Part shown: one piece after another, positions 1,918-50,862 of the stretch | Layout: each line of letters starts with the position of its first letter | Position numbering within the stretch: position 1 is the first letter of the stretch | Assembly: GCA_029932055.1 (NCBI GenBank) | Contig: JAOZQU010000001.1 | Coordinates: 1-50,871 of the forward strand | Reading direction: 5' to 3' | Length of the DNA: 50,871 bases | Origin: Desulfocapsa sp. | Lineage (GTDB): Bacteria; Desulfobacterota; Desulfobulbia; Desulfobulbales; Desulfocapsaceae | Position numbers and translations under genes: made by a program | The notes under the pieces: model-generated | The model's database searches: none | What the model saw: the letters and a program-made list of their open reading frames with translations, nothing else | What the model was told of the DNA's origin: nothing

Positions 1918-3450
1918 TTATTTCCGACACCAGTAGATACGCACATGGGAAGGCTGACCAGCCACCTGAGGAAAATCCAAAGGCGGATTCAAGCGACTGA
2001 CATCAGAGAATATTTTTTTTAAGGTATCATAATAAAAAGATTCCGGTCCTGCCTGGTGATTATTGGAGAATAGAGCTATTCCGTTTTTGGCCAGGATTTT
2101 ACTCACATCATGGGCCAGACCCGACCACTCTTTCTCCACATGAAAACCTTTGCCCTTGCCGGCAGAGGCAAACACCGGGGGGTCACAGATAACCACATCA
2201 AAAGGGGTAAATCCTGCCGGATCTTTTTGCTTTTTACGGAGTTGTCTGGCCAGCCACTTGCGCACATCTTCTTTGATGAATTTTGCATTGCCAGCACTAG
2301 CCAATTGATTTATGGCAACATTCTTCTGGCCTTGCTTGAGACATCCTGCTGCCAGATCCACGGAAAAAACTACCTCTGCTCCAGCGGCCAGTGCATAGAT
2401 CGAAAATGAACAGGTAAAGGCAAACAGATTTACAACCCGTTTTTCCTTTACGATCCTTGCTATTCGGCTGCGGCAATCACGTTGATCAAGAAAAAGCCCC
2501 ACATGCTGACGATCATTAAGCCTTACACTAAAATGCAGCTCATGTTCGTAAGCGAGGAAAGACCGCGGAATTTTTTCTCCCCAGGTGGCAAGATCTGCAA
2601 AGAGTTTCCGTTTATGTGGATCACGCAAATTGGTTTTGACCACCCCGCCCCGGCAGCGACAGAGCGTAGAAAGAGCGTTAAGCACACTGGCAAGTCTATG
2701 CAGGAGCTGCTTTGCCGGCAGGGATTCATCAAAGCCTGTCACACAGAGCCATTCCCCATATTTGTCAACAGCTATGTCCTCTTTAGAATATTCTCCACGG
2801 TGAATCAATCGGCAGCAATCGCTGATGCTTGCCAGAAAAGGATATCGTTTTCCAGCGAGTGCAAGACTTGTCAACTCTCCTGTTAGTCCATCCAGACACA
2901 GTTCAAACCATGGTGGAGGATCAACTTGTAGTATCTGGTCGATTCCAGGCCAGTTAACCGCGCTGCAATGAAGACATAACCTGACAAATGGCGACCCTTT
3001 GTATTGCTCATCTCCAAGAAGCGGAATCCCGGAGGCTGCCGCATGACGTCTGATCTGGTGGGTTCTACCACGATGAATAACAGCCTTGTACAGATTGTAG
3101 ACAGCACCTTCCCGAACCTTACTGAAGTGGGTTTTGCAGGGCTTTCCGTCCAGGGGACGCGTACAGGTCCAGGATGTCTGAGAACTTTTCCGGGCAATGA
3201 AGAAGTAACTTTTTTTCGCATTTTCATCTTCATGAATAGTCTGTGCTTCAGCCACAGCTTCGGGATTGAGAGCAAATACCAGCACTCCACTTGTTCCTTT
3301 ATCAAGGCGTGAGCAGGTGTGAACCTGCAAGTCATGGTGCAGACTCAACCACTCCACCAGGCCAAGATCACCTTCATGGGCCCGGTGGGTGGAGATGCCG
3401 GAAGGCTTATTGACCACCAGCCAGTTTGTATCATGGTAGAGAAATGTCAT
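1918..3450 (-). CDS. RluA-family pseudouridine synthase fused to RlmI/RlmK-like class I SAM methyltransferase
   Basis: N-half: VVNKPSG, SRLDKGTSG (catalytic Asp), GRTHQIRRH, LLGD..Y. C-half: GLFLDQR, NLFAFTCSFS, DPPVF. Confidence 0.85.
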   Translation of the reverse strand: MTFLYHDTNWLVVNKPSGISTHRAHEGDLGLVEWLSLHHDLQVHTCSRLDKGTSGVLVFALNPEAVAEAQTIHEDENAKKSYFFIARKSSQTSWTCTRPLDGKPCKTHFSKVREGAVYNLYKAVIHRGRTHQIRRHAAASGIPLLGDEQYKGSPFVRLCLHCSAVNWPGIDQILQVDPPPWFELCLDGLTGELTSLALAGKRYPFLASISDCCRLIHRGEYSKEDIAVDKYGEWLCVTGFDESLPAKQLLHRLASVLNALSTLCRCRGGVVKTNLRDPHKRKLFADLATWGEKIPRSFLAYEHELHFSVRLNDRQHVGLFLDQRDCRSRIARIVKEKRVVNLFAFTCSFSIYALAAGAEVVFSVDLAAGCLKQGQKNVAINQLASAGNAKFIKEDVRKWLARQLRKKQKDPAGFTPFDVVICDPPVFASAGKGKGFHVEKEWSGLAHDVSKILAKNGIALFSNNHQAGPESFYYDTLKKIFSDVSRLNPPLDFPQVAGQPSHVRIYWCRK

Positions 3451-3865
3451 TATCAGGAGTGTTTCAAAGTTTTCGATTTGAGCAAAGTTTCAAAGATTAA
3501 TAATTCAAATATACTTTTTTGAGACGTATGTTTTTGCAAGAAGGGCTGTAAATATAGAAGATTGTATATGTTCCTGCGACAGATTTCACCAATTGTGCAA
3601 TTATACCCAGCCCTATGCAAAATTCAAGAGCAGGATTTTGCGAACCTGGAAGGAGGTCCCACGAGGAAGGCACTCAACTTATGGAAGAGGCCAGGGACAT
3701 AACAATGGTCTTTTTGGAATTCACTGCCGAAAAGTGGTTCCTGGTTGAAATGCACCACCATGTTTGATGGATATGCACCACTTTCTGTTTAGGTTCTTGA
3801 TTTATTTATAGCTGTACATTCCAGTAGTAAAGAATTGGCTGTGCTTAATGGCTTTTAAAAACCAA

Positions 3866-3881
3866 TGGCATAATATTTGCT
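3866..3881 (+). promoter_or_regulatory. Sigma54 -24/-12 promoter of the vWA operon
   Basis: TGGCATAATATTTGCT has exact GG-N10-GC spacing, about 90 bp upstream of ATG 3973. TGCACCAC repeats at 3751 and 3774 are possible activator sites. Confidence 0.7.
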
Positions 3882-3972
3882 TTTAACTAATAAAGCATCC
3901 AGTGTTGATGTCTTAAGGACTAGGGAAATCTACCGCTAATTCATTACTATGTGACTGTGAGGTAAAGAGACC

Positions 3973-6360
3973 ATGAACAACAAAGGAGCAAGACTTACCA
4001 TCAGCGGGATAGCATCTTTGCTCATCCTGCTTGCAGCTACGGCCGGTACCGCATGGGCTGAAAATCACGATTTAGTGATACAACCGGCTATTGATGTATC
4101 TTCGCTTAGTTCCGCAAATTGGAAATCTCCTGATATAAAAATCGGCGCGGATTTTGGTGATCCAGCGGTGCCGGATATCATCAGACGGGGCATCTCCAAT
4201 CCAATTTATTCACGCTTTTACATCAACGGTATTCAGGATTTTTCGGTTCCATCCGGTGGGGTGGAGCTGCGTTTGCACTATCGTGACGCTCTCCTTGGTG
4301 ATACGCCGCCCGCTCTAAGTGATCCGAGTTGGCAGGCAATTGGGACGTTGCCTGCCACATTTATTCCATCGGATGGACCCTTTGCTATTACAAGGACTTG
4401 GCCTGACGACTTTCCATCGGTGACGAACAAATCCGTGCCTTGGGTTGCACCATCTCTTGGAGAGTATTTTCATATTCGTTCGGAGGTAGCTTACCTCGGT
4501 GGCAGTGTGACTGACGAAAATCCTGATAATAATGTGGCGGTATCATTCTATGAGAGCCTCTCCGGCTTCATTGATGTGGTTCTGTTACACGATACCTCAG
4601 GGAGTATGGGGTACTACTTATTTGACGGCATGCCCTATATTGATCATGCAAAGGCGAGGGCGTCGGGATTCATCTCTGCGCTTAGTGACACCAGCAACCG
4701 GTTGGCGGTCGTTGAGTTCAGCAGCAATTTTACCAGCGGCAGCAATGATGTGTGGCCGACACCAGGTTCCTTGCAGCTGGCAACTATCGCGAACAAGAAT
4801 CTTGCTATCGCTGCAATAGGCGGTTTGACAGACGGGGGAGGGACGCCCTTGGGGGCAGGCCTGCAAAGGGCAATCGATCTTTTACTTGCACCGCCTTCGG
4901 TTCCAGATCCCATCGTGAGAAAAAAGGTCATCCTGCTTCTCAGTGACGGTTATGAAAATCAAGGTACATTGCGTGCATGCTCCGGTGCTGATCCTCTGGC
5001 GCCCTGCGTTGGTGAGAGCCTTCTTGCTCAATTACAGACCAACAATATCCGTGTATTTTCTCTTGCGCTGGGCACGGCTGCCTGGACCGAATGCCTGGAT
5101 TGCCTGGCCTCCGAGAGTGGTGGGCAGTGGTATACCACACCGGATCCCGGAATCAATATGGCCGAAGTCTATCTGCATATGCAACATGCATATTCCACCG
5201 ATGATCTATACAGCATTGATCGAGGTACGAGCGGAGGCGGAGATGATGCCTATGCGACGAACTTCGAAGGTGTGGATGATGTTTTGTATTTTATCCTCGC
5301 GTGGGATGATCTCGAAGCGCAATTGAACTTTCAGTTGCAAAGGCCGGGCGGTTCGTGGGCTGATCCGAGTGCGCTCTCCAATGCAACGGTATTCAGTGGT
5401 AATGGCTACCTTGTCGTCCGCATCGCAAAAACGTTGGTTGGTAATTGGGGATACCGGGTAACGGGCGACGATGGCGAGCGTTATCTTGCCGCGGTTCGCT
5501 CGGATCGTGTGGGAGTACGCCTGGCAGTGGATGCAATTTCCAGGGGATTTGTTGGCGACGCCATTGATATCAAGGCTCGACTCAGCAGGTATGGGAAGCC
5601 GATCGTAGATGCCAAACTGAACGCCACCGTGCAGGTGCCGGCACAGGTTTCGCTGGATTCCAGGTTGAGACAATTGTCGCGCGACTATATGTTGAAAAAT
5701 CATGCCATACCGCTCGATCCAAGTGATTTGAAGCAGAATCCCGACATTTGGCAACGAGCCTCGTTTATTAAGAAGATCACAGGCGGCAAACCGGAGAGCC
5801 TGGTGCAGACACGTCCTGTTTCTGTTGCATTGAATCACGTTGGCGATGGCGTGTACTCGGGTAGCCTGGCAAACGATACGAAAATCTCGGGCGCTTATAA
5901 AGTCACCGTAAACTACAGTGATCAGGGGACCAATCGTACACAATCACAACCGGTCTGGTTAAAACAGGGAGTGATTGATCAGGCCAGGTCACGCGCTGAA
6001 ATCGTGGAGATTAAAGCAAATGATGATACGACGCAGTGGTTGTTGCGCGTTTACCCCGTAGACCGTTTCGACAACGCAATTACCGATACTTCCTTACTGC
6101 AGCAGGTGGAGGTAAGTATTAACGGAGGCCATGTGGACAAGGCACCGGAGGTAGTGTTCGATAGCGCATTTCAACAACCGGTAATTGCTGCATCCGGTAG
6201 CGTACCGCGGCTGCAAAGTGTCTCCATAGGTGGGGAACAATTGCAGATCATTGCGGATAGCGTCCCGGATGAAGACGGTGGCTACGGGTTGATCATTATA
6301 GCTCTATTGATCCTGATTGCACTGGCTCTAGCCTGGTTCTTGTGGCGCCGTCGGACATAG
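3973..6360 (+). CDS. Secreted, C-terminally anchored vWA-domain protein
   Basis: Signal peptide (AWA-E), WKSPDI N-domain, MIDAS DTSGS...GGTP...LSDG, beta-rich C-domains, C-terminal GGYG + hydrophobic helix + RRRT. Confidence 0.85.
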   Translation: MNNKGARLTISGIASLLILLAATAGTAWAENHDLVIQPAIDVSSLSSANWKSPDIKIGADFGDPAVPDIIRRGISNPIYSRFYINGIQDFSVPSGGVELRLHYRDALLGDTPPALSDPSWQAIGTLPATFIPSDGPFAITRTWPDDFPSVTNKSVPWVAPSLGEYFHIRSEVAYLGGSVTDENPDNNVAVSFYESLSGFIDVVLLHDTSGSMGYYLFDGMPYIDHAKARASGFISALSDTSNRLAVVEFSSNFTSGSNDVWPTPGSLQLATIANKNLAIAAIGGLTDGGGTPLGAGLQRAIDLLLAPPSVPDPIVRKKVILLLSDGYENQGTLRACSGADPLAPCVGESLLAQLQTNNIRVFSLALGTAAWTECLDCLASESGGQWYTTPDPGINMAEVYLHMQHAYSTDDLYSIDRGTSGGGDDAYATNFEGVDDVLYFILAWDDLEAQLNFQLQRPGGSWADPSALSNATVFSGNGYLVVRIAKTLVGNWGYRVTGDDGERYLAAVRSDRVGVRLAVDAISRGFVGDAIDIKARLSRYGKPIVDAKLNATVQVPAQVSLDSRLRQLSRDYMLKNHAIPLDPSDLKQNPDIWQRASFIKKITGGKPESLVQTRPVSVALNHVGDGVYSGSLANDTKISGAYKVTVNYSDQGTNRTQSQPVWLKQGVIDQARSRAEIVEIKANDDTTQWLLRVYPVDRFDNAITDTSLLQQVEVSINGGHVDKAPEVVFDSAFQQPVIAASGSVPRLQSVSIGGEQLQIIADSVPDEDGGYGLIIIALLILIALALAWFLWRRRT

Positions 6361-6409
6361 GCGTGATAGAGGCTGTCCTTATTATGAATAATCTAGAGGA
6401 GCGACGAAA

Positions 6410-8086
6410 ATGACATATGCTCAAAGAATACGTTATGCAAAAAATTACCAGATTCTTCTCCTGTTGCCATTTTTCATATTTTTGCTGTGGTCGCCAACCA
6501 CAACCTTCGCTGCAGACTACTTTGTCTGGGGCCGTGTGTATAGCGCGACACCGTTGACAACTGGCGAAGAGCCACCAAATCACGAGCTTAGCGGGGTGCC
6601 GGCCGAACAGATCGTCGGTGAGGGGCTGATCCCACAAGTGACGCGCAATTTGCTAAAGATTAAAGTCCTCGCTGCAAGTGACGGCAGCGAGCTGGGGAGC
6701 TACGTCACCCGACATGACGGTGGATACCTGGTCTCGTTTACAGCAACGCCAAGCTCGGGCAGTGACATCGCCATACGCTTTGTCATCGAGGAACTGGCCA
6801 CCAGTAAGACTTTGCTCGAAAGCGATGAATTGGCACTTTCATCCTGGCCCACGCCCAACATACGCTTTTTGCTCATTGAAGAGGATCTCAGTGAAATCAG
6901 CGGCGGTGGTGCAGTTACAACAATGGCAGCTCCAGGTCAATACACCGGCATTTTTACGAGGGTGGGTAAGATTGAACTGGAGACCGATAGCGTGAGACTG
7001 ATCAACATCGCTACGGGAAGGGCCACCGTTCCTGATCCGATTTCTGGTCAGCTGCACATACCCGCCTACAAAGACTCGCCATTTGGCGGTAATCTTTATT
7101 TGTTCGGCGCATTCAGCCAATATTTCTATGGCCCAACAAGCCCGCCGGATAATCCAACGATTTATTATAAGATTCGCATCGATGATCTTGGCACCAGCAC
7201 CACGGGGTACATGGACGATACCCTGGTTAAGACAAAATATACAGTCAATTTCGGAGCCGGCACTGTGGATACGCAACGCGTCACGTTGGGACCAAATGAT
7301 GGCGGTGGCCTTCCAGGCTGTATCGAAGCAGGGGTGCCGGTCTGTTATGAGCTCACTCCGATGTCGGCAGGCGCCAACGTCTTCTGGAGTTTTCCCGACC
7401 TGGTTGCCCTCTGGCGCACCGGTGGACTCAATGGCGACTATAGGCTCCACTTGGAGCAGGTGGGTTTGAACAATTCGGGCATGTTCCAGCCATTTACCGA
7501 TTTCACCAATCTCAAGCTGAACCTGGACAACGTTGCACCAGTGGCTCTCATCAATCCTCTGCAAACAGGTGATCCTGATACGCCAAGGGTCTATACACCG
7601 AACCCTGCAAATCCCACCATTGGGGGCGACCTCATGACTATGACTTCTCCCCTGGGATCTTTCCCGGGTGACTATGGTGGCTCAGCCGATCCAACCTGCG
7701 CTATATTGAGTCTTGAGGAACCATCATTGGGGCATCACTATTTGGCTTTCAAACTGACCGCCTCTCATGATAATGGTTTTTTACGTTATTGGGATTTTTT
7801 ATACAAACGCAATGACACAGGCTACCAACGACACATTGGAAAGATATTTGATGGCAGCACCATGGTAGATTATGGAACCGTGCAGGTCGCGAGTGCTGAG
7901 ACCGGTCAAGGTGGTTTCCAAGACAGGTATCTCTATCTAAACAGCGAATATCTCCAGCCTGGTGGTGGTACGGATCTTGGAAGTTGTGGATATAGGTTCC
8001 TGATAAGGGCAACGACCCGTACGACCGACGGTTATCACTATTTGCGGTATCGTTCGGATGAGGACATACATTACATTGTGCGCTAA
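6410..8086 (+). CDS. Secreted hypothetical protein (beta-rich)
   Basis: 558 aa ORF with RBS GAGGAG and signal peptide (TFA-A). No catalytic motif recognised. Confidence 0.75.
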   Translation: MTYAQRIRYAKNYQILLLLPFFIFLLWSPTTTFAADYFVWGRVYSATPLTTGEEPPNHELSGVPAEQIVGEGLIPQVTRNLLKIKVLAASDGSELGSYVTRHDGGYLVSFTATPSSGSDIAIRFVIEELATSKTLLESDELALSSWPTPNIRFLLIEEDLSEISGGGAVTTMAAPGQYTGIFTRVGKIELETDSVRLINIATGRATVPDPISGQLHIPAYKDSPFGGNLYLFGAFSQYFYGPTSPPDNPTIYYKIRIDDLGTSTTGYMDDTLVKTKYTVNFGAGTVDTQRVTLGPNDGGGLPGCIEAGVPVCYELTPMSAGANVFWSFPDLVALWRTGGLNGDYRLHLEQVGLNNSGMFQPFTDFTNLKLNLDNVAPVALINPLQTGDPDTPRVYTPNPANPTIGGDLMTMTSPLGSFPGDYGGSADPTCAILSLEEPSLGHHYLAFKLTASHDNGFLRYWDFLYKRNDTGYQRHIGKIFDGSTMVDYGTVQVASAETGQGGFQDRYLYLNSEYLQPGGGTDLGSCGYRFLIRATTRTTDGYHYLRYRSDEDIHYIVR

Positions 8087-8184
8087 TCGTTTAGCGTGAA
8101 AAGGATTTCAGGGGAGAGCTATGATGATTTATCTTTGTAATTACTCAGAGCGCGTGAACAGGTTTTAGCAAAGATCCAGGAATT

Positions 8185-8442
8185 ATGTATCTCATTAAGC
8201 TACAGCTGTCTCAGCGCAACAACACTTTTGAGTATGTTCGTCGGATTCCCGGCCTGGATACGCTTACCATAGACGAAGACTATGGAATTGTGTCAATCAG
8301 TCCAAAGCGCGGACTTTATGTAATCCGTGTGCTGGATGATATAGATATTAACAGGATCCGCGCTCTTCCTGAGGTAAGAGGAGTGTACGGAGAGGTGCGC
8401 ATTGCCCCTATAAGTAAGGGGAATAACAATTTGGAGGATTGA
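8185..8442 (+). CDS. Small protein resembling the propeptide of the downstream subtilase (putative inhibitor/chaperone)
   Basis: RBS AGGA. GL..D.Y..V...P...YVIR...GVYGEVRIAPI parallels GL..D.F..V...P...YLLR...GVYSDPRISAI in the protease N-terminus. Confidence 0.7.
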   Translation: MYLIKLQLSQRNNTFEYVRRIPGLDTLTIDEDYGIVSISPKRGLYVIRVLDDIDINRIRALPEVRGVYGEVRIAPISKGNNNLED

Positions 8443-8444
8443 AC

Positions 8445-10082
8445 ATGTCGGAAAAGATTCGTGTACTAATACGAATGGTTCATACCCGGGAAATCAACAT
8501 GGCCATGGCCTCTCCCGGGGCATCGAGTGCGCCCTTTTTAGAGGGACTAGAAGGCTTTCAGATGGACGCGGGGTTCTCTCCCGTGCCGGTACCACAGAAA
8601 GTGCGGCGGCCCCAAGGTGACGCGCGCTCCACTGGGCGTTTGTTTTCGTTCGACATACGCCCGGAGCAATCTACGTATCTATTACGCGGCGAAGTCGAGG
8701 ACGAGCAAGCTCTCGATCGGTTGACCGTCGCAGTAGATCAGGATCCCAATGGTGTCGGGGTGTATTCTGACCCCCGCATCAGCGCCATTGCGGTCTGTCC
8801 GGCTAATCCCATCGGAACCCATAGCGATGTCGAAAGCCGGCTCCAGGTGACCGATCTGCATAACCGCGGTATGAACGGTACGGATGTCGTCGTCGCCATA
8901 GTGGATACTGGTGTCAACATGGCGCATCTGCACAATAAAGGGAAGAATCCCACCTTCGACAGTCAACGTAGCTGGTCACCAGTGCAGGGTTCCGTACTCG
9001 GCGACATGGAGGTAGACCATGGCACTATGTGTGCATTCGACGTCTGCATTGCCGCGCCCAATTGTACGATACTCGACTATGCATTGCTGCAGTCGCAGAC
9101 TCAAGGCGAAACGACTATGGATGGTTTCCTGAGCGATGCTGTAAAAGGCTTCAGCGAGTTGCTGAACCTGATGCTCGGAGACAATCCGCCACGTGCACTG
9201 GTCGTCAATAACAGTTGGGGGATGTTCCATCCATCCTGGGATTTTCCGGTAGGACATTCGGGCAATTACAGTGACAATCCAGAACACCCGTTCAATATTA
9301 TTGTCGAGAGTCTGGAGGACGCTGGTGCCGACATCTTGTTCGCCGCCGGTAACTGTGGTGCGGAATGTGCGGACGGGCGCTGCAGAGGAGAAACCGATCA
9401 GGGGATTTATGGTGCCAACAGTCATATTGCGGTGCTCAGCGTGGCCGGCGTTAGCGTGAACGACGTGCGCCTGGGGTACTCCACCCAGGGGCCCGGTCGA
9501 TTGGATACCAATAAACCGGATATCTGCGCATACACCCATTTCGACGGTTCCGAAGTGTATGACGCCGATGGCGGAACCTCAGCCGCCTGCCCGGTTGCGG
9601 CCGGAGTTGTCGCCGCCATACGCAGCAGATATTCGACGGCAGAGCTCTCTCCGACCCGGCTCAGAAACTTGCTACGGCGTACAGCCAACGATTTGGGGAT
9701 GCAAGGATTCGACTTCGATCACGGTTTTGGCGTCATTGATACTGCCGCTTTATTGAACGCCTTGGATCGACGCGACACGCAGCCATTGCAGGTTGGTCAA
9801 ACAACGTCAGGCACGTTGCCGGAAAGCGGGGCCACCCTGACGTACAAACTAACACTTGGAGATGCGTTGACCATCGCACTCGATGGACCGCAGGGCGTCG
9901 ATTTCGATATCTACATACGCAAAGACGAGCAACCGACCACGGAAGAATACGATTTCCGTGGTTATACCAGTGATGCAAATGAAAAGATCCGCATAGATGC
10001 GGCTTCACCTGGCGATTATTATGTCATGGTGCGCTCATACCGGGGAGGAGGGAGCTTCACCCTGAAAGCGACGCTTGATTGA
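8445..10082 (+). CDS. S8 subtilisin-family serine protease with C-terminal PPC domain, no signal peptide
   Basis: Triad motifs VAIVDTG, DHGT, GGTSAACP; oxyanion AAGN; PPC-like DFDIYIR...GDYYVMVRSY. ATG 8445 follows GGAGG. Confidence 0.92.
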   Translation: MSEKIRVLIRMVHTREINMAMASPGASSAPFLEGLEGFQMDAGFSPVPVPQKVRRPQGDARSTGRLFSFDIRPEQSTYLLRGEVEDEQALDRLTVAVDQDPNGVGVYSDPRISAIAVCPANPIGTHSDVESRLQVTDLHNRGMNGTDVVVAIVDTGVNMAHLHNKGKNPTFDSQRSWSPVQGSVLGDMEVDHGTMCAFDVCIAAPNCTILDYALLQSQTQGETTMDGFLSDAVKGFSELLNLMLGDNPPRALVVNNSWGMFHPSWDFPVGHSGNYSDNPEHPFNIIVESLEDAGADILFAAGNCGAECADGRCRGETDQGIYGANSHIAVLSVAGVSVNDVRLGYSTQGPGRLDTNKPDICAYTHFDGSEVYDADGGTSAACPVAAGVVAAIRSRYSTAELSPTRLRNLLRRTANDLGMQGFDFDHGFGVIDTAALLNALDRRDTQPLQVGQTTSGTLPESGATLTYKLTLGDALTIALDGPQGVDFDIYIRKDEQPTTEEYDFRGYTSDANEKIRIDAASPGDYYVMVRSYRGGGSFTLKATLD

Positions 10083-10239
10083 GCGTGCAAATTTAAATCA
10101 ATGGGATACGTACCGCGTGGCGGTGAAGGTACTGCTCCGCGGGCTTCCGCAGCAGGCGCGGGTCATTGCCACTAAATACCACGCCCCTCCCAATTAAATG
10201 ACACACCGAACAAAGTCGGTGACTTCATAAGGAAGAAAT

Positions 10240-10374
10240 ATGGCAGGTGTTTTCATTAGCTACCGGCGTCAGGATTCCGCGGGCTGGGCAGGGCGCTTGG
10301 CCACGGACCTTTTGGATAGGTTCGGTACAGGGGCAGTTTTTCAAGACATAGACGCCATAGGAGCGGGAGAGGAT
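10240..10374 (+). pseudogene. N-terminal 45 codons of a TIR-domain (TIR_2-like) gene, truncated
   Basis: VFISYRRQDSAGWAGRL...FG...VFQDIDAIGAGED is a typical bacterial TIR start. Similarity ends before the region that would carry the catalytic Glu. Confidence 0.85.
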
Positions 10375-10681
10375 TCAGTGATCAGGGGATACCAAAACTA
10401 TTATGCTGTCCCTGGTAATATGGATCTGATGAAAAGTTTCTATGACCTGACTACCAGAGCATGGCTACGTACACTGAGGCGTCGAAGTCACAAAGGGCAA
10501 AATTATACATGGAAGCGCTTTGAAAAACTAATCAGATGGCTGATACCAAGAGTTAGAATTGTACACCCTTTTCCAGATCAGAGATTTCAGCGTTATTACC
10601 CGAGGTAGGAGCCGTATGAGGTAATACCTCACGTACGGATCTGTACGGGGGATGCCGGGTAACCGGCATTCCTACCGTGAC
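10375..10681 (+). mobile_element. 5'-truncated group II intron remnant (maturase C-terminus + RNA domains V-VI)
   Basis: SVIRGYQNYYAVPGN...LRRRS...W..F...RIVHPFP maturase tail. DV GAGCCGTATGAGGTAATACCTCACGTACGGATC starts at 10609. DVI ATGCCGGGTAACCGGCAT-TCCTACCGTGAC ends at 10681. Confidence 0.9.
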
Positions 10682-10846
10682 ACTATTAATTGATTACATT
10701 TTCGACAAACAAACGTGAGTCCAATTGTTTTCTGGAACAGCCAAAATCAATATATTTTTTAAAAATCATGTTTTTGCTTTTGAGTTAAGGGCGTCAGGCT
10801 ATAGTTATCCAATATCTTTAAATCTGTCTTTGCGAAGGCAGTTGGA

Positions 10847-12148
10847 TTAAAAAAAGTAGCGAACACGGAGTTCCAGTTTATTGCTGTTCACCTTCTCTCC
10901 AAATTCTGTGAATTCACCGCCGTTGATCAGGGAAAAACGCAGACGGAATTCCCAATTGGTCAGGCCGGTGTAGACAGTCTCTGGGCTGATGGAGTAGCTC
11001 TGGTCGTCAAGGTTGACTATCGTTGTAATACCGGGAGTAAAATAGAGGATATCAAAAGGTTCCTTCTGAGTAAATTTGGCATACAGGTATTGCCGTCCGG
11101 GTTGCGGGCGGCCATATCCTTTAATGCTCAACTCCCTTGCCCTGTCCAGTAAATTGGAGCCAAGTGTTGGTTCCTGGGCAAAGCCTGCTTCCGCCATCTG
11201 ATAGAAACGTATCATCTCTTTTTCACTGTAGCCACCACCGTTATAATAATATTCAATGATGGAAGTGATGTCATTCTCTGCGAGATAGCGAATTCCAAGC
11301 AGGGTGGAAAACGCTTCTTGCTCTCTTACAGAAGTGGAATTGTCCTCCAGCAGAACAATCTTTTTGTGATCCTGGATATATGCAGCTTCTCCATGGAGTT
11401 CAAAGTGGGGGGCCAGGTTCGTGGAAAAGTCCAGGCCAATTTTGTTTGAGCGACTGTTTCCTGTTAAGACAATCAAATCGATATCCGTATCCATGTACAG
11501 CAGATACAGCTTGGCGGCCAGGTTGACATTGTCTCGCTCTCCAAAGTCATTGTTGATATCTTCCCAGACAGGCAACACTACCAGGGTGAGGTCAGCTGTT
11601 TGCAGAAGCCCCTGATAACTTTTGTTAAAATCACTTTCCTGAGTAACATACCCTTCGAGTGCCTCTTCAGGGTCATTGGGATCTTTGTGACGATTGATAA
11701 ATCCCACCGGGTTCCAGGCGTAGCCTTTTCCCCATTTATATGATTTTTTTCCAATGGAAAGTGCAAGAGACGGGTCTGGTTTGACAGAGAGGTAAGCGGA
11801 ATACACGTCGGATATGTCAGTCCAGCCTATGGTGTCCTGTTGAGCTGCAGCCCTGAGCCGCAAGTTCAGGCTGCTGATTCCATACTCATAGCTGCCATCG
11901 AGCTGTATACTTCCCCTGATGAGATCCATGGTGGACATCTCAGGGGCTGCAAGGTTTAAATTGGAGAAAACAGAGTCCTGATTGATATTCAGGTGATCCC
12001 CACGTAATTCCAGGTATCCACCCACTTGAAGGGCTTTTTTTTCGATTTCTTCAAGATCAAAGGAGAATTCATCTTGCGCCCAAAGGAGAGACGGTAGAAG
12101 CATCATGATACAGGAGAGAAAAAGAGAGGTACTCAGACCCTTCTTCAT
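10847..12148 (-). CDS. Putative outer-membrane beta-barrel protein of the Lol-like ABC operon
   Basis: Signal peptide, GKK...WG.G.AWNP motif, C-terminal RVRYFF beta-signal. Confidence 0.75.
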   Translation of the reverse strand: MKKGLSTSLFLSCIMMLLPSLLWAQDEFSFDLEEIEKKALQVGGYLELRGDHLNINQDSVFSNLNLAAPEMSTMDLIRGSIQLDGSYEYGISSLNLRLRAAAQQDTIGWTDISDVYSAYLSVKPDPSLALSIGKKSYKWGKGYAWNPVGFINRHKDPNDPEEALEGYVTQESDFNKSYQGLLQTADLTLVVLPVWEDINNDFGERDNVNLAAKLYLLYMDTDIDLIVLTGNSRSNKIGLDFSTNLAPHFELHGEAAYIQDHKKIVLLEDNSTSVREQEAFSTLLGIRYLAENDITSIIEYYYNGGGYSEKEMIRFYQMAEAGFAQEPTLGSNLLDRARELSIKGYGRPQPGRQYLYAKFTQKEPFDILYFTPGITTIVNLDDQSYSISPETVYTGLTNWEFRLRFSLINGGEFTEFGEKVNSNKLELRVRYFF

Positions 12149-49424: not shown

Positions 49425-49511
49425 GCCGGAGTGGTGAAACTGGTAGACGCACTGGACTCAAAATCCAGCGGGAGTAATCCCATGTCGGTTCGATTCCGAC
49501 CTCCGGCACCA
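49425..49511 (+). tRNA. tRNA-Leu (CAA)
   Basis: GCCGGAG acceptor stem, anticodon arm CTGGA-CTCAAAA-TCCAG, long variable arm, GTTCGATTC T-loop, encoded CCA. TTGACA upstream at 49374. Confidence 0.97.
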
Positions 49512-49941: not shown

Positions 49942-50862
49942 GGGTCAGGTCTTGAAATGTCAGATATCCTGTGATACACTCATTTTATGGCAAGACCACT
50001 AAGAATAGAATATCCAGGAGCAGTTTATCATCTTACTTCCCGAGGCAATGCCAGGAATAATATTTTCCAGGATGACACTGATAGGATCGCCTTTTTGAAG
50101 GTTCTGGAAAGCGTTATAGCAAAATACCATTGGCTGTGTCATGCTTATTGCTTGTTGGATAACCACTATCACCTGCTGGTAGAAACCCCGGATCCTAATC
50201 TTTCCCTTGGAATGCGTCAACTTAATGGTGTGTATACACAGAGGTTCAATCATCGACATAATCGTGTTGGTCATGTATTCCAAGGACGATTCAAATCGAT
50301 ACTTGTTGCGAAAGATGAACATCTTCTTGAGCTTTGCAGGTATGTTGTTTTGAATCCGGTGCGTGCAACTATGGTAGACAATCCAAAGGAATGGGACTGG
50401 AGCAGTTATCGGGCTACCGCATATTTTGTTAAAACCCCAGACTTTTTATCCGTGGACTGGATTCTTGGTCAATTTGCACAGACAAGGAATGAAGCTCGCA
50501 AGATGTACAGAAGATTTGTTGCTGATAGCCTGATGAGGCCAAAGGAGACTCCTTGGAAAAAACTTGTAGGTCAGATCGTCTTTGGCGGGAAGGAGTTTGT
50601 AGTTGATATCCAAAGCCGACTCAGTGAGGTGAAAGAAATTGGTGAAATTCCGAGAGCCCAGAGATTTCCCGGCAGACCTCAGCTGGATATCCTTTTTTCC
50701 AAACAGGAAAGAGAGGATAGGGTAGCTCGAAATAAACAGATCGAGATCGCCCATCTCCAGCATGGTTATACCTTAAAAGAAATAGCCGACGAACTGAGGC
50801 TTCACTACACTACCGTAAGCAAAGTCATAAAAGCAAAAAAGTAATTTTTCAAGACCTGACCC
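49942..50862 (+). mobile_element. IS-like unit: Y1/RAYT gene between 16-bp terminal inverted repeats
   Basis: GGGTCAGGTCTTGAAA (49942-49957) and TTTCAAGACCTGACCC (50847-50862). Confidence 0.85.
49987..50844 (+). CDS. REP-associated tyrosine transposase (RAYT, Y1 HUH) with C-terminal HTH
   Basis: MARPLR, YH.TSRGN, NHYHLL (HUH), GHVFQGRF, YVVLNPVRA, WSSY, C-terminal LKEIA..L..HYTTVS. Confidence 0.93.
   Translation: MARPLRIEYPGAVYHLTSRGNARNNIFQDDTDRIAFLKVLESVIAKYHWLCHAYCLLDNHYHLLVETPDPNLSLGMRQLNGVYTQRFNHRHNRVGHVFQGRFKSILVAKDEHLLELCRYVVLNPVRATMVDNPKEWDWSSYRATAYFVKTPDFLSVDWILGQFAQTRNEARKMYRRFVADSLMRPKETPWKKLVGQIVFGGKEFVVDIQSRLSEVKEIGEIPRAQRFPGRPQLDILFSKQEREDRVARNKQIEIAHLQHGYTLKEIADELRLHYTTVSKVIKAKK

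Follow-up and report, generated by a model that had tools for sequence, protein, structure and literature searches.

A likely horizontally acquired patchwork island in Desulfocapsa sp. encodes a free prodomain copy, a putative trans inhibitor of a predicted cytoplasmic subtilase

We conclude that the gene island at positions 3,866 to 10,681 of the window (the whole stretch of Desulfocapsa sp. DNA that was analyzed, 50,871 nucleotides) is likely a horizontally acquired patchwork of two gene pairs and a TIR gene broken by a deletion, and that an 85-residue protein encoded in it, a free copy of a subtilase prodomain, is likely a trans inhibitor of the predicted cytoplasmic subtilase encoded next to it. 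We put the probability of this reading at roughly 0.6. As a sequence-only reading of the same DNA had noted, the island holds five open reading frames, all co-oriented on the forward strand with one promoter in front (Table 1); the gaps between them are short. That these five genes form one recurring system is not supported.

Table 1. Features of the island and its flanks, with positions in the window
Feature	Position	Strand	Remarks
Left host flank: pseudouridine synthase-methyltransferase fusion	1918..3450	-	Pfam; present in 24/29 congeners
Host-genus sigma54 promoter cassette	3735..3899	+	tandem 17-nt repeats 3742-3781; -24/-12 motif 3866-3881
vWA protein, 795 aa	3973..6360	+	predicted signal peptide; vWA domain 201-392; C-terminal membrane helix + RRR
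ORF2, 558 aa, predicted secreted all-beta tandem-sandwich, unnamed family	6410..8086	+	AF2 pLDDT 88
85-aa free-standing S8-prodomain paralogue, I9-like fold, no predicted signal	8185..8442	+	stop 2 nt before S8 start
S8 subtilase, 545 aa	8445..10082	+	own prodomain ~1-115; PPC domain C-terminal; no predicted signal peptide
GC-rich hairpin-forming spacer, 125 nt	10102..10226	.	related cold-seep contigs cease matching at 10226
TIR_2 stub, 44 codons, cut by deletion	10240..10372	+	Pfam TIR_2 positions 1-39 of 122, below cut-off
Group II intron remnant, last 309 nt	10373..10681	+	RT/maturase tail 10375-10608; domains V/VI 10607-10681
Right host flank: last gene of ABC/LolA-like operon	10847..12148	-	present in 19/29 congeners

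The 85-residue protein and its S8 partner

Profile comparison indicates that the small protein is homologous to the prodomain of the neighboring S8 subtilase (HHalign 96.7%, E 3.7e-10), and matches to its HMM lie on the N-terminal side of the catalytic Asp in 71 of 80 S8 proteins and on the C-terminal side in 1 of 80. The structural model (pLDDT 89) has the subtilisin prodomain 3bgo_P as its top fold match (Z 6.6, rmsd 1.9, 66 residues), tied with RRM domains, and five of the 50 listed fold matches are propeptide or I9 chains (3bgo_P, 3whi_B, POIA1 1v5i_B, 9ues_A and 6u26_A). Together, the HHalign result and the fold match bear out the earlier description of this gene as propeptide-like. The fold match is of middling strength. 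Foldseek pairs the protein with 3cnq_P at E 0.22, residues 1 to 83 match no Pfam family at E ≤ 0.1 (the I9 model included), and an 81-row profile has no meaningful match among PDB sequences; Atlas returned only unnamed clusters (0.90 to 0.92), and the names found by protein cluster look-up were uninformative.

The S8 subtilase (Pfam S8, E 1.3e-25, above cut-off; PPC, E 4e-13) retains its own prodomain and a full catalytic triad, D154/H192/S379, with oxyanion N303; the triad and oxyanion motifs are present in 79 to 80 of 80 loci. It also has a conserved C-x3-C-x4-C motif and nine cysteines in all. On an 11-residue hydropathy proxy with a threshold of 2.0, which was the sole criterion used for signal peptides, an N-terminal hydrophobic stretch is found in 0 of 71 S8 homologues and 0 of 81 small proteins, and S8 is predicted to be cytoplasmic.

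The two genes are tightly linked. Among the best 80 of 360 S8 loci found, the small gene adjoins S8 in 77; of the other three, two are contig edges, and in the third S8 is split by a rearrangement, with the small gene beside the 5' half. The small protein is encoded in 50 of 50 S8 genomes, as a single copy in 49, and among 301 cyanobacterial genomes S8 and the small protein occur in the same 2, the sole additional weak match falling on the prodomain in an S8 that is more distant. The pair spans many phyla, archaea included, and apart from the small gene no neighbor family at the 80 loci is common across phyla. In a 71-row quick tree, its position upstream or downstream of S8 has switched at least three times with the link kept. 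The island S8 groups with 4 Gammaproteobacteria in this tree, which is unrooted, and we therefore claim no donor. The identity matrices of the small protein and S8 are correlated (Spearman 0.59; 0 of 999 permutations), but kinship alone would give this result and we do not use it.

Such near-obligate one-to-one presence suggests a needed function, which might also be that of a trans foldase, activator or permanent subunit that aids S8 folding or associates with the cis prodomain. In the source text available, yeast and Pleurotus stand-alone I9 proteins are said to act both as chaperones and as inhibitors, and the cis prodomain has an insertion of ~22 residues that is missing from the free copy. 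We nevertheless consider this role unlikely: the cis prodomain has been kept, as judged by the HMM matches above, so that a folding helper is already there, the small gene lies downstream of S8 in 50 of 77 loci, and the free copy retains the C-terminal motif of the prodomain, which in known propeptides is the part that binds the active site. The idea of an uncleavable bait was dropped; the predicted P2 residue is frequently Pro both in the cis prodomain (38/71) and in the free copy (53/66) and thus does not separate the two.

Known systems and a possible mechanism

By analogy, the principle of such a protease pair is already known from stand-alone I9 inhibitors and from the logic of SpeB-Spi. 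Subtilisin-propeptide-like stand-alone inhibitors of the I9 type include yeast PBI2, Pleurotus POIA1, an Arabidopsis inhibitor, Plasmodium SUB1-ProM and Toxoplasma MIC5, and the fungal and plant I9 proteins are precedents according to the part of the source available (10.64898/2026.05.05.722857). Like them, the 85-residue protein is the product of a separate small gene and has a propeptide fold (it matches POIA1 at Z 5.5), and like SUB1-ProM it is encoded beside its subtilase (PMC6993865, accessible text). The inhibitors described in these sources are eukaryotic and are said to have no significant sequence similarity to propeptides. In contrast, the protein studied here is prokaryotic, signal-less, detectably homologous to the prodomain of its partner and adjacent to the protease, and its inhibitory activity is predicted.

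In Streptococcus pyogenes SpeB-Spi and in staphopain-staphostatin, a protease gene is likewise coupled to a small inhibitor gene, and Spi, in the text available, is called a propeptide analogue and is thought to block prematurely active protease in the cytoplasm (PMC2873492, PMC3462683). However, those enzymes are secreted papain-fold cysteine proteases, while the island enzyme is a serine protease of family S8 and lacks a predicted signal peptide. With typical bacterial S8 proteases and S8-PTS it shares the D/H/S triad, an I9-type prodomain and a C-terminal accessory domain (PMC9424270), but unlike them it has no predicted signal peptide and, unlike S8-PTS, no toxin-immunity pair, and the small gene is its only conserved neighbor. 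The S8 clades named in section 3.4 of that paper are T5SS, T7SS, T9SS and BetaH; a clade with a free prodomain copy is not named there. We found no description of a prokaryotic S8/free-prodomain pair in the main texts consulted, which include few subscription papers; the family could appear in the supplements of PMC9424270 and PMC7159879.

If subtilase biochemistry is a guide, the cis prodomain would fold S8 and then be cleaved near I115/A116, and the coexpressed free copy would dock on the same S8 surface and plug the active site; loss or degradation of the copy would end this protection of the cell. A prokaryotic I9-like family tied approximately one-to-one to a signal-less subtilase would extend a control principle described from eukaryotes, and the two proteins offer a simple system for asking what purpose a second prodomain serves for an enzyme that already has one, and which substrates a tightly guarded cytoplasmic subtilase cleaves. 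In a bolder and distinctly doubtful reading, S8 and the free copy are a widespread cytosolic guard or toxin-antitoxin-type switch, in which loss of a labile copy under stress or infection unleashes S8 on exchangeable neighbors; these may be TIR here, the ORF2-family protein in Nitrospira and Cys-rich tails in other clades, and the pair would then be an undescribed prokaryotic conflict module found from bacteria to archaea.

The vWA-ORF2 pair and the neighborhoods of both pairs

The vWA protein has a vWA domain (Pfam VWA, E 1.2e-12) with the MIDAS motif DTSGS, and its N-terminal hydrophobicity is 2.59. It had been described earlier as a surface protein; of the 9 full-length homologues that were aligned, only 3 have the membrane anchor. 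Its tail matches MYXO-CTERM and LPXTG models weakly and the protein matches no NCBIfam model, including TIGR03788 (dedicated sortase target); TIGR03784 and TIGR03788 were not found in genome G000 (95% complete), and we do not assign the protein to the proteobacterial dedicated sortase targets. ORF2 has no match in Pfam, NCBIfam or PADLOC and none in 400 genomes of the host's phylum. Its N-domain is transthyretin/CnaB-like (Z 8.8, rmsd 2.6, 81 residues), Foldseek gives only generic Ig/Fn3 matches (TM <0.2), the Atlas match (0.83) is unnamed, and the C-terminal module is fused in distant homologues to beta-helix, C25, dockerin or T9SS-tail proteins; we do not propose a new fold. By the same hydropathy proxy, 68 of 74 ORF2 proteins have an N-terminal hydrophobic stretch. 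A vWA gene lies upstream at 11 of 14 ORF2 loci. We conclude that vWA and ORF2 probably form an exported pair for adhesion or matrix functions, a MIDAS vWA protein with a tandem beta-sandwich partner, which adds an unnamed secreted beta-sandwich family. A link between this pair and the protease is not supported by this analysis.

The sequence-only reading had joined all five genes into a surface-sensing or proteolytic signaling module, in which vWA and ORF2 would sense a surface cue, S8 would be freed from its propeptide-like brake, and TIR would be the output in conflict or signaling. Apart from the gene order and single promoter, several observations are in keeping with this. At a Nitrospira locus the gene immediately after the S8 pair encodes a remote homologue of ORF2 (HHalign 97.6%), TIR genes lie 2.5 kb upstream of the S8 pair at another locus, and cold-seep contigs from two studies (~3 to 8% differences) also span ORF2, the small gene and S8, which shows that this block is not unique to the strain. 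Nevertheless, the five-gene set was not co-located elsewhere, largely the outcome which that reading had named as speaking against it. The 80 S8 loci include 0 with the vWA family of the island, 1 with an ORF2-like gene (the remote one) and 1 with TIR (on the opposite strand); the vWA gene directly after S8 at a further locus (L034) is unrelated. The 14 ORF2 loci include 0 with S8, 0 with the small protein and 0 with TIR, with ≥1 kb of downstream sequence in only 6. ORF2 is lacking from 79 of 80 S8 genomes (present in 0/50 and 1/30, with the host's own genome positive), and, as a weak proxy, the number of longest contigs of equal size between match tables is 0 for ORF2 versus S8 and 2 for the small protein versus S8. 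TIR was detected, among matches listed for a local HMM built from 4 sequences, somewhere in at least 38 of 50 S8 genomes, so that one nearby TIR is weak evidence. A contig with a near-identical S8 (34 differences in 1,459 nt) continues for 1.3 kb without a TIR match, the promoter is a host cassette, and the hydropathy proxy predicts that the membrane separates the two pairs, which have no transducer to connect them. We therefore judge a single module to be very improbable and advise against pursuing the five genes as a single defense operon.

MoxR-vWA ternary systems share a vWA domain with the island and have TIR among their effectors, but in the accessible text (PMC7159879) their core is an AAA+ MoxR-vWA unit; the island vWA has a predicted signal peptide, and no AAA gene is present among the island ORFs (related loci were judged from ORF lists). 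The TIR_2-type N-terminus resembles Thoeris and other TIR defense proteins through weak PADLOC and NCBIfam matches. However, it is far below the cut-offs (ThcB4, 20.3 bits versus 220), has no effector partner and is not conserved beside either pair.

It is equally improbable that S8 gets out of the cell without a signal peptide, through lysis or another secretion system, and cleaves exported substrates such as vWA or ORF2 after Spi-like guarding by the free copy in the cytoplasm. In favor of this, PPC domains are typical of secreted proteases, a PPC-like motif is present in 20 of 80 S8 proteins, the island enzyme is cysteine-rich as noted, and peptidase genes follow two ORF2 loci (astacin-like and M43), but no conserved secretion gene is found near the 80 loci and most S8 genomes lack ORF2.

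Acquisition and decay of the island

The island has a GC content of 0.515 and a CpG observed/expected ratio of 1.045, neither of which is reached by any of 584 genome tiles of 6.8 kb (mean GC, 0.442 ± 0.021; mean CpG ratio, 0.715 ± 0.064), in a comparison for which the island ends were chosen after inspection. The GC/CpG richness previously noted thus stands for the island as a whole and fails for the small gene (0.437), the intron (0.456) and the promoter DNA. S8 was not found in 150 genomes of the host's family, and in two congeners (G600 and G149) a single gene for a 717-residue histidine kinase lies between both flank genes at the island site. Composition, the lack of S8 and ORF2 matches in the relatives searched and the histidine kinase at the site all support the earlier proposal of horizontal acquisition, and the island DNA is likely of foreign origin. 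No convincing terminal or target repeats were found at the island ends, no S8 relatives were found in viral contigs, and the 4 plasmid records with an S8 relative are each <60% identical. The spacer has no Rfam match at E ≤ 5 and no plasmid match longer than 27 nt.

A sigma54-type motif, TGGCA-N6-TTGCT, begins at position 3866, as had been noted, but it belongs to a host-genus cassette in AT-rich host-type DNA outside the GC-rich block. Across both strands of the genome, 36 sites fit the strict pattern; sigma70 promoter and terminator scans of the island gave results at chance level only. Cassette relatives (G000:C153, 84%; G131:C83, 78%; G134:C68, 77%) each precede unrelated genes, and all three keep a similar motif and the tandem repeats, which are likely activator binding sites. 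No loose sigma54 motif was found in the 400 bp preceding each of 6 vWA homologues or in the 300 bp preceding each of 9 S8 pairs. The block probably replaced the histidine kinase gene and would have come to lie behind the host cassette, and a later deletion ending inside a host-genus intron would have removed the 3' part of TIR.

The destroyed TIR gene and the intron scar, both recognized earlier, are confirmed. The last open reading frame runs from the 44 TIR codons into the 3'-terminal 77 codons of an intron-encoded reverse transcriptase, ltrA-like by tblastn, and Rfam Intron_gpII (RF00029) matches at 10607-10681 with 43 bits (cut-off, 40). Contigs of 2 studies span the TIR/intron junction. 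Insertion of the intron into TIR was ruled out because none of the forward frames of the AT-rich DNA beyond 10681 codes for the missing part of TIR; a deletion fits better. Full-length TIR homologues, whose recovery had been suggested, are represented at best, among 300 phylum genomes, by a 58%-identical TIR-membrane protein. Compared with the intron copy of congener G137, which has a 501-codon reverse transcriptase frame and is 91% identical starting exactly at 10373, the copy here is a 3'-terminal remnant with neither a complete ribozyme nor a complete reverse transcriptase.

The small protein-S8 protease pair

The best 80 of 360 S8 relatives confirmed in a genome scan were kept as loci; they span many bacterial phyla and include several archaea. 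By iterated HMM search, the small gene adjoins the S8 gene in 77 of the 80 (27 upstream, 48 downstream on the same strand, and 2 downstream on the opposite strand). The three loci without an adjoining small gene are two contig edges and one split S8, whose halves lie ~240 kb apart in one genome (L043 and L115 in G574), with the small gene beside the 5' half. At least three gene-order changes are required on a quick tree of 70 loci and the window, which left out 10 loci missing one sequence. Whole-genome searches found the small protein in 50/50 S8 genomes tested (single in 49), and in 301 cyanobacterial genomes the two proteins co-occur in the same 2, one being the centre genome and both already among the loci. 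No other neighbor family common across phyla was found at the S8 loci. We conclude that the pair is widespread and apparently unannotated; within limited literature coverage, no description of such a prokaryotic pair was found, and in PMC8195603 "prodomain" occurs in a reference title only.

The small family aligns end to end with the S8 protein's own prodomain (96.7%), with a C-terminal motif in common. Its model is ferredoxin-like, and a subtilisin prodomain is its joint-best structural match, with the lowest rmsd among the matches listed, although RRM and ACT folds score alike. The S8 protein has its catalytic residues and keeps its cis prodomain. Both proteins are without a hydrophobic N-terminal stretch, and by this proxy both are predicted to be cytoplasmic. 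The reading that we favor as a whole, at a probability of roughly 0.6, includes the free prodomain copy as a putative trans-acting brake on a cytoplasmic subtilase, second to the cis prodomain. It might work much as SpeB-Spi does in the available portions of PMC2873492 and PMC3462683, and as do I9 proteins that stand alone, SUB1-ProM and POIA1 among them (available text of PMC6993865 and 10.64898/2026.05.05.722857). Because the small protein has no Pfam I9 match and inhibition is putative, we term it "I9-like." The near-constant pairing would also suit a trans foldase or a subunit; the cis prodomain is kept, and we consider this alternative unlikely. We judge improbable a signal-independent export of the S8 protease, which would then process surface proteins. 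The pair also lacks the defining features of S8-PTS, as far as the accessible text of PMC9424270 sets them out.

A C-x3-C-x4-C motif (residues 304 to 313 of the window S8) is present in 79/80 S8s, and a conserved Cys just past the predicted cleavage site (residue 118) is present in 68/71; these cysteines possibly form a metal site or disulfides. Distant homologues have Cys-rich C-terminal tails with repeated Cys-Arg-Arg-Tyr/Phe-Pro-x-Leu-Cys (pattern in 29/80) and often a terminal Cys cluster (L045, L054, L064, L069, L075-L078, L080, L082, L098, and others), and further homologues carry different C-terminal domains. Among the 25 closest loci, three (L021, L023, and L035) have alpha-amylase-family genes immediately upstream of the pair, but these are mutually distant relatives at most. 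In three related cyanobacteria (L028, L030, and L033), a gene for a large WD40-repeat protein directly precedes the small gene; the S8 of L030 is interrupted by a transposase.

Features of the island and copies of its promoter cassette (window positions unless a contig or locus is named)
Feature	Position	Length	Remark
vWA protein	3973-6360	795 aa	
ORF2	6410-8086	558 aa	no family assigned
Small protein	8185-8442	85 aa	
S8 protease	8445-10082	545 aa	with PPC domain
Fifth ORF	from 10240		begins as TIR domain
Cassette copies	3735-3899; G000:C153:2593-2805; L118; L119		

The vWA-ORF2 pair and its linkage to the protease pair

ORF2 gave 85 matches by word search and 250 by profile search (E 0.001). 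In 14 ORF2 loci drawn from 334 pattern matches in a metagenome scan, a vWA homologue lies immediately upstream in 11; two others have <100 nt of upstream sequence, and the last matches remotely, at 30%. ORF2 is confidently modeled (pLDDT 88) as tandem beta-sandwiches with a transthyretin/CnaB-like N-domain. Most of its long distant homologues carry beta-helix, C25 peptidase, dockerin, FlgD, or T9SS-tail domains (44 homologues scanned), suggesting an extracellular role. In the vWA protein the MIDAS motif is intact; of 9 full-length copies, 3 have a membrane anchor. We infer an adhesion or matrix role for this pair. The vWA protein does not have the features of a Pds sortase target. The two genes stand as an unnamed vWA/beta-sandwich pair, predicted to be secreted.

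The sequence-only reading had joined all five genes into one surface-sensing or proteolytic signaling system with TIR output. The genes are present as it described, but we see no conserved system of four or five genes: the window's vWA family was not found at the 80 S8 loci (flank was sufficient on both sides in 56), and the 14 ORF2 loci yielded no S8, small protein, or TIR (at least 1 kb of downstream sequence in only 6). Nor does the island have the makeup of Thoeris or, in the available text of PMC7159879, of MoxR-vWA systems. Whole S8 genomes gave ORF2-profile hits in 0/50 and 1/30 (own genome positive). The sole hit, a true remote homologue (HHalign 97.6%) that immediately follows the S8 pair in Nitrospira locus L076, counts against two separate pairs. 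ORF2, the small gene, and S8 are also bridged in close relatives, possibly near kin, from cold-seep runs X8 and X9. There may be a loose affinity between the pairs; a five-gene system is improbable. The vWA gene after S8 in L034 is unrelated to the window's. The L076 homologue (L076:2919-5075; 718 aa) has no evident signal sequence by eye, and X8 and X9 have 32 additional nt between ORF2 and the small gene (window 8124-8132).

Probable acquisition of the island, and its TIR remnant

The window (contig G000:C135) belongs to a genome of 3.77 Mb and 44% GC. Across 3866-10681, GC (0.515) and CpG o/e (1.045) exceed every one of 584 genome tiles, with the ends picked after inspection. S8 had no match in 150 family genomes (E 1e-40) and ORF2 none in 400 phylum genomes; in 29 congeners, matches to island DNA were confined to the promoter region and the intron. 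Between the same two flanking genes, congeners G600 and G149 carry a single histidine kinase of 717 aa (TIGR03785-like, 582 bits versus a cut-off of 612), and the source genome has no full-length match to it. This occupancy, together with the composition and the lack of S8 and ORF2 matches in the relatives searched, makes acquisition by replacement likely. The gene apparently replaced (L100:2951-5104; L101) encodes a PdsS-like histidine kinase; models for the Pds sortase and its targets were likewise not found in the source genome. Misassembly is unlikely, since contigs from a second study span both edges and the TIR-intron junction. Runs X1 and X5 have an 11-nt duplication at 10719. A tRNA gene (49425-49508) and a transposase-like ORF (49987-50844, judged by eye) lie near the contig end.

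The fifth ORF does start as a TIR domain, but TIR sequence is limited to 44 codons. Starting at 10373, the DNA shares 91% identity with a group II intron of congener G137 (its 3' end; the RT frame there has 501 codons), and in other runs contigs with related introns likewise begin aligning exactly at this position. Given these alignments, and since DNA past the intron is not the rest of the TIR, a deletion likely took most of the intron together with the 3' part of the TIR and whatever genes once followed it. Of the 80 loci, L021 alone has TIR near the S8 pair, on the opposite strand and 2.5 kb upstream; among the matches listed (71 more are unlisted), 38/50 S8 genomes have TIRs somewhere. The closest full-length relative of the stub in 300 phylum genomes is a TIR-membrane protein (58% identity) in another context. 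In X8, a contig of 2,771 nt aligns to 8649-10107 (34 differences) and continues for 1,312 more bases downstream, and its depth runs to about 10226, ending before the TIR start; an insertion ahead of an intact TIR is possible. The GC-rich, hairpin-forming spacer at 10102-10226 ends where related contigs stop matching, 14 nt short of the TIR start, and may represent a small repeat or the boundary of a cassette; X9 has it on a 441-nt contig with flanks that do not match the window.

The promoter cassette

The sigma54-type motif at 3866 is part of an AT-rich cassette of 165 nt, in which tandem 17-nt repeats lie ~100 nt upstream of the motif; from sigma54 biology, we take these repeats to be activator sites. 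Related copies (G000:C153, G131:C83, and G134:C68) each precede unrelated genes and keep the repeats and motif, although the -12 box of the G134:C68 copy is a variant. The motif was not found ahead of 6/6 vWA homologues or 9/9 S8 pairs tested. Given this recurrence in the host genus and absence from the homologues, the promoter is a host feature, outside any traveling system. The recurring cassette could reflect a regulon under a single activator, or it could be a small promoter element that is mobile.
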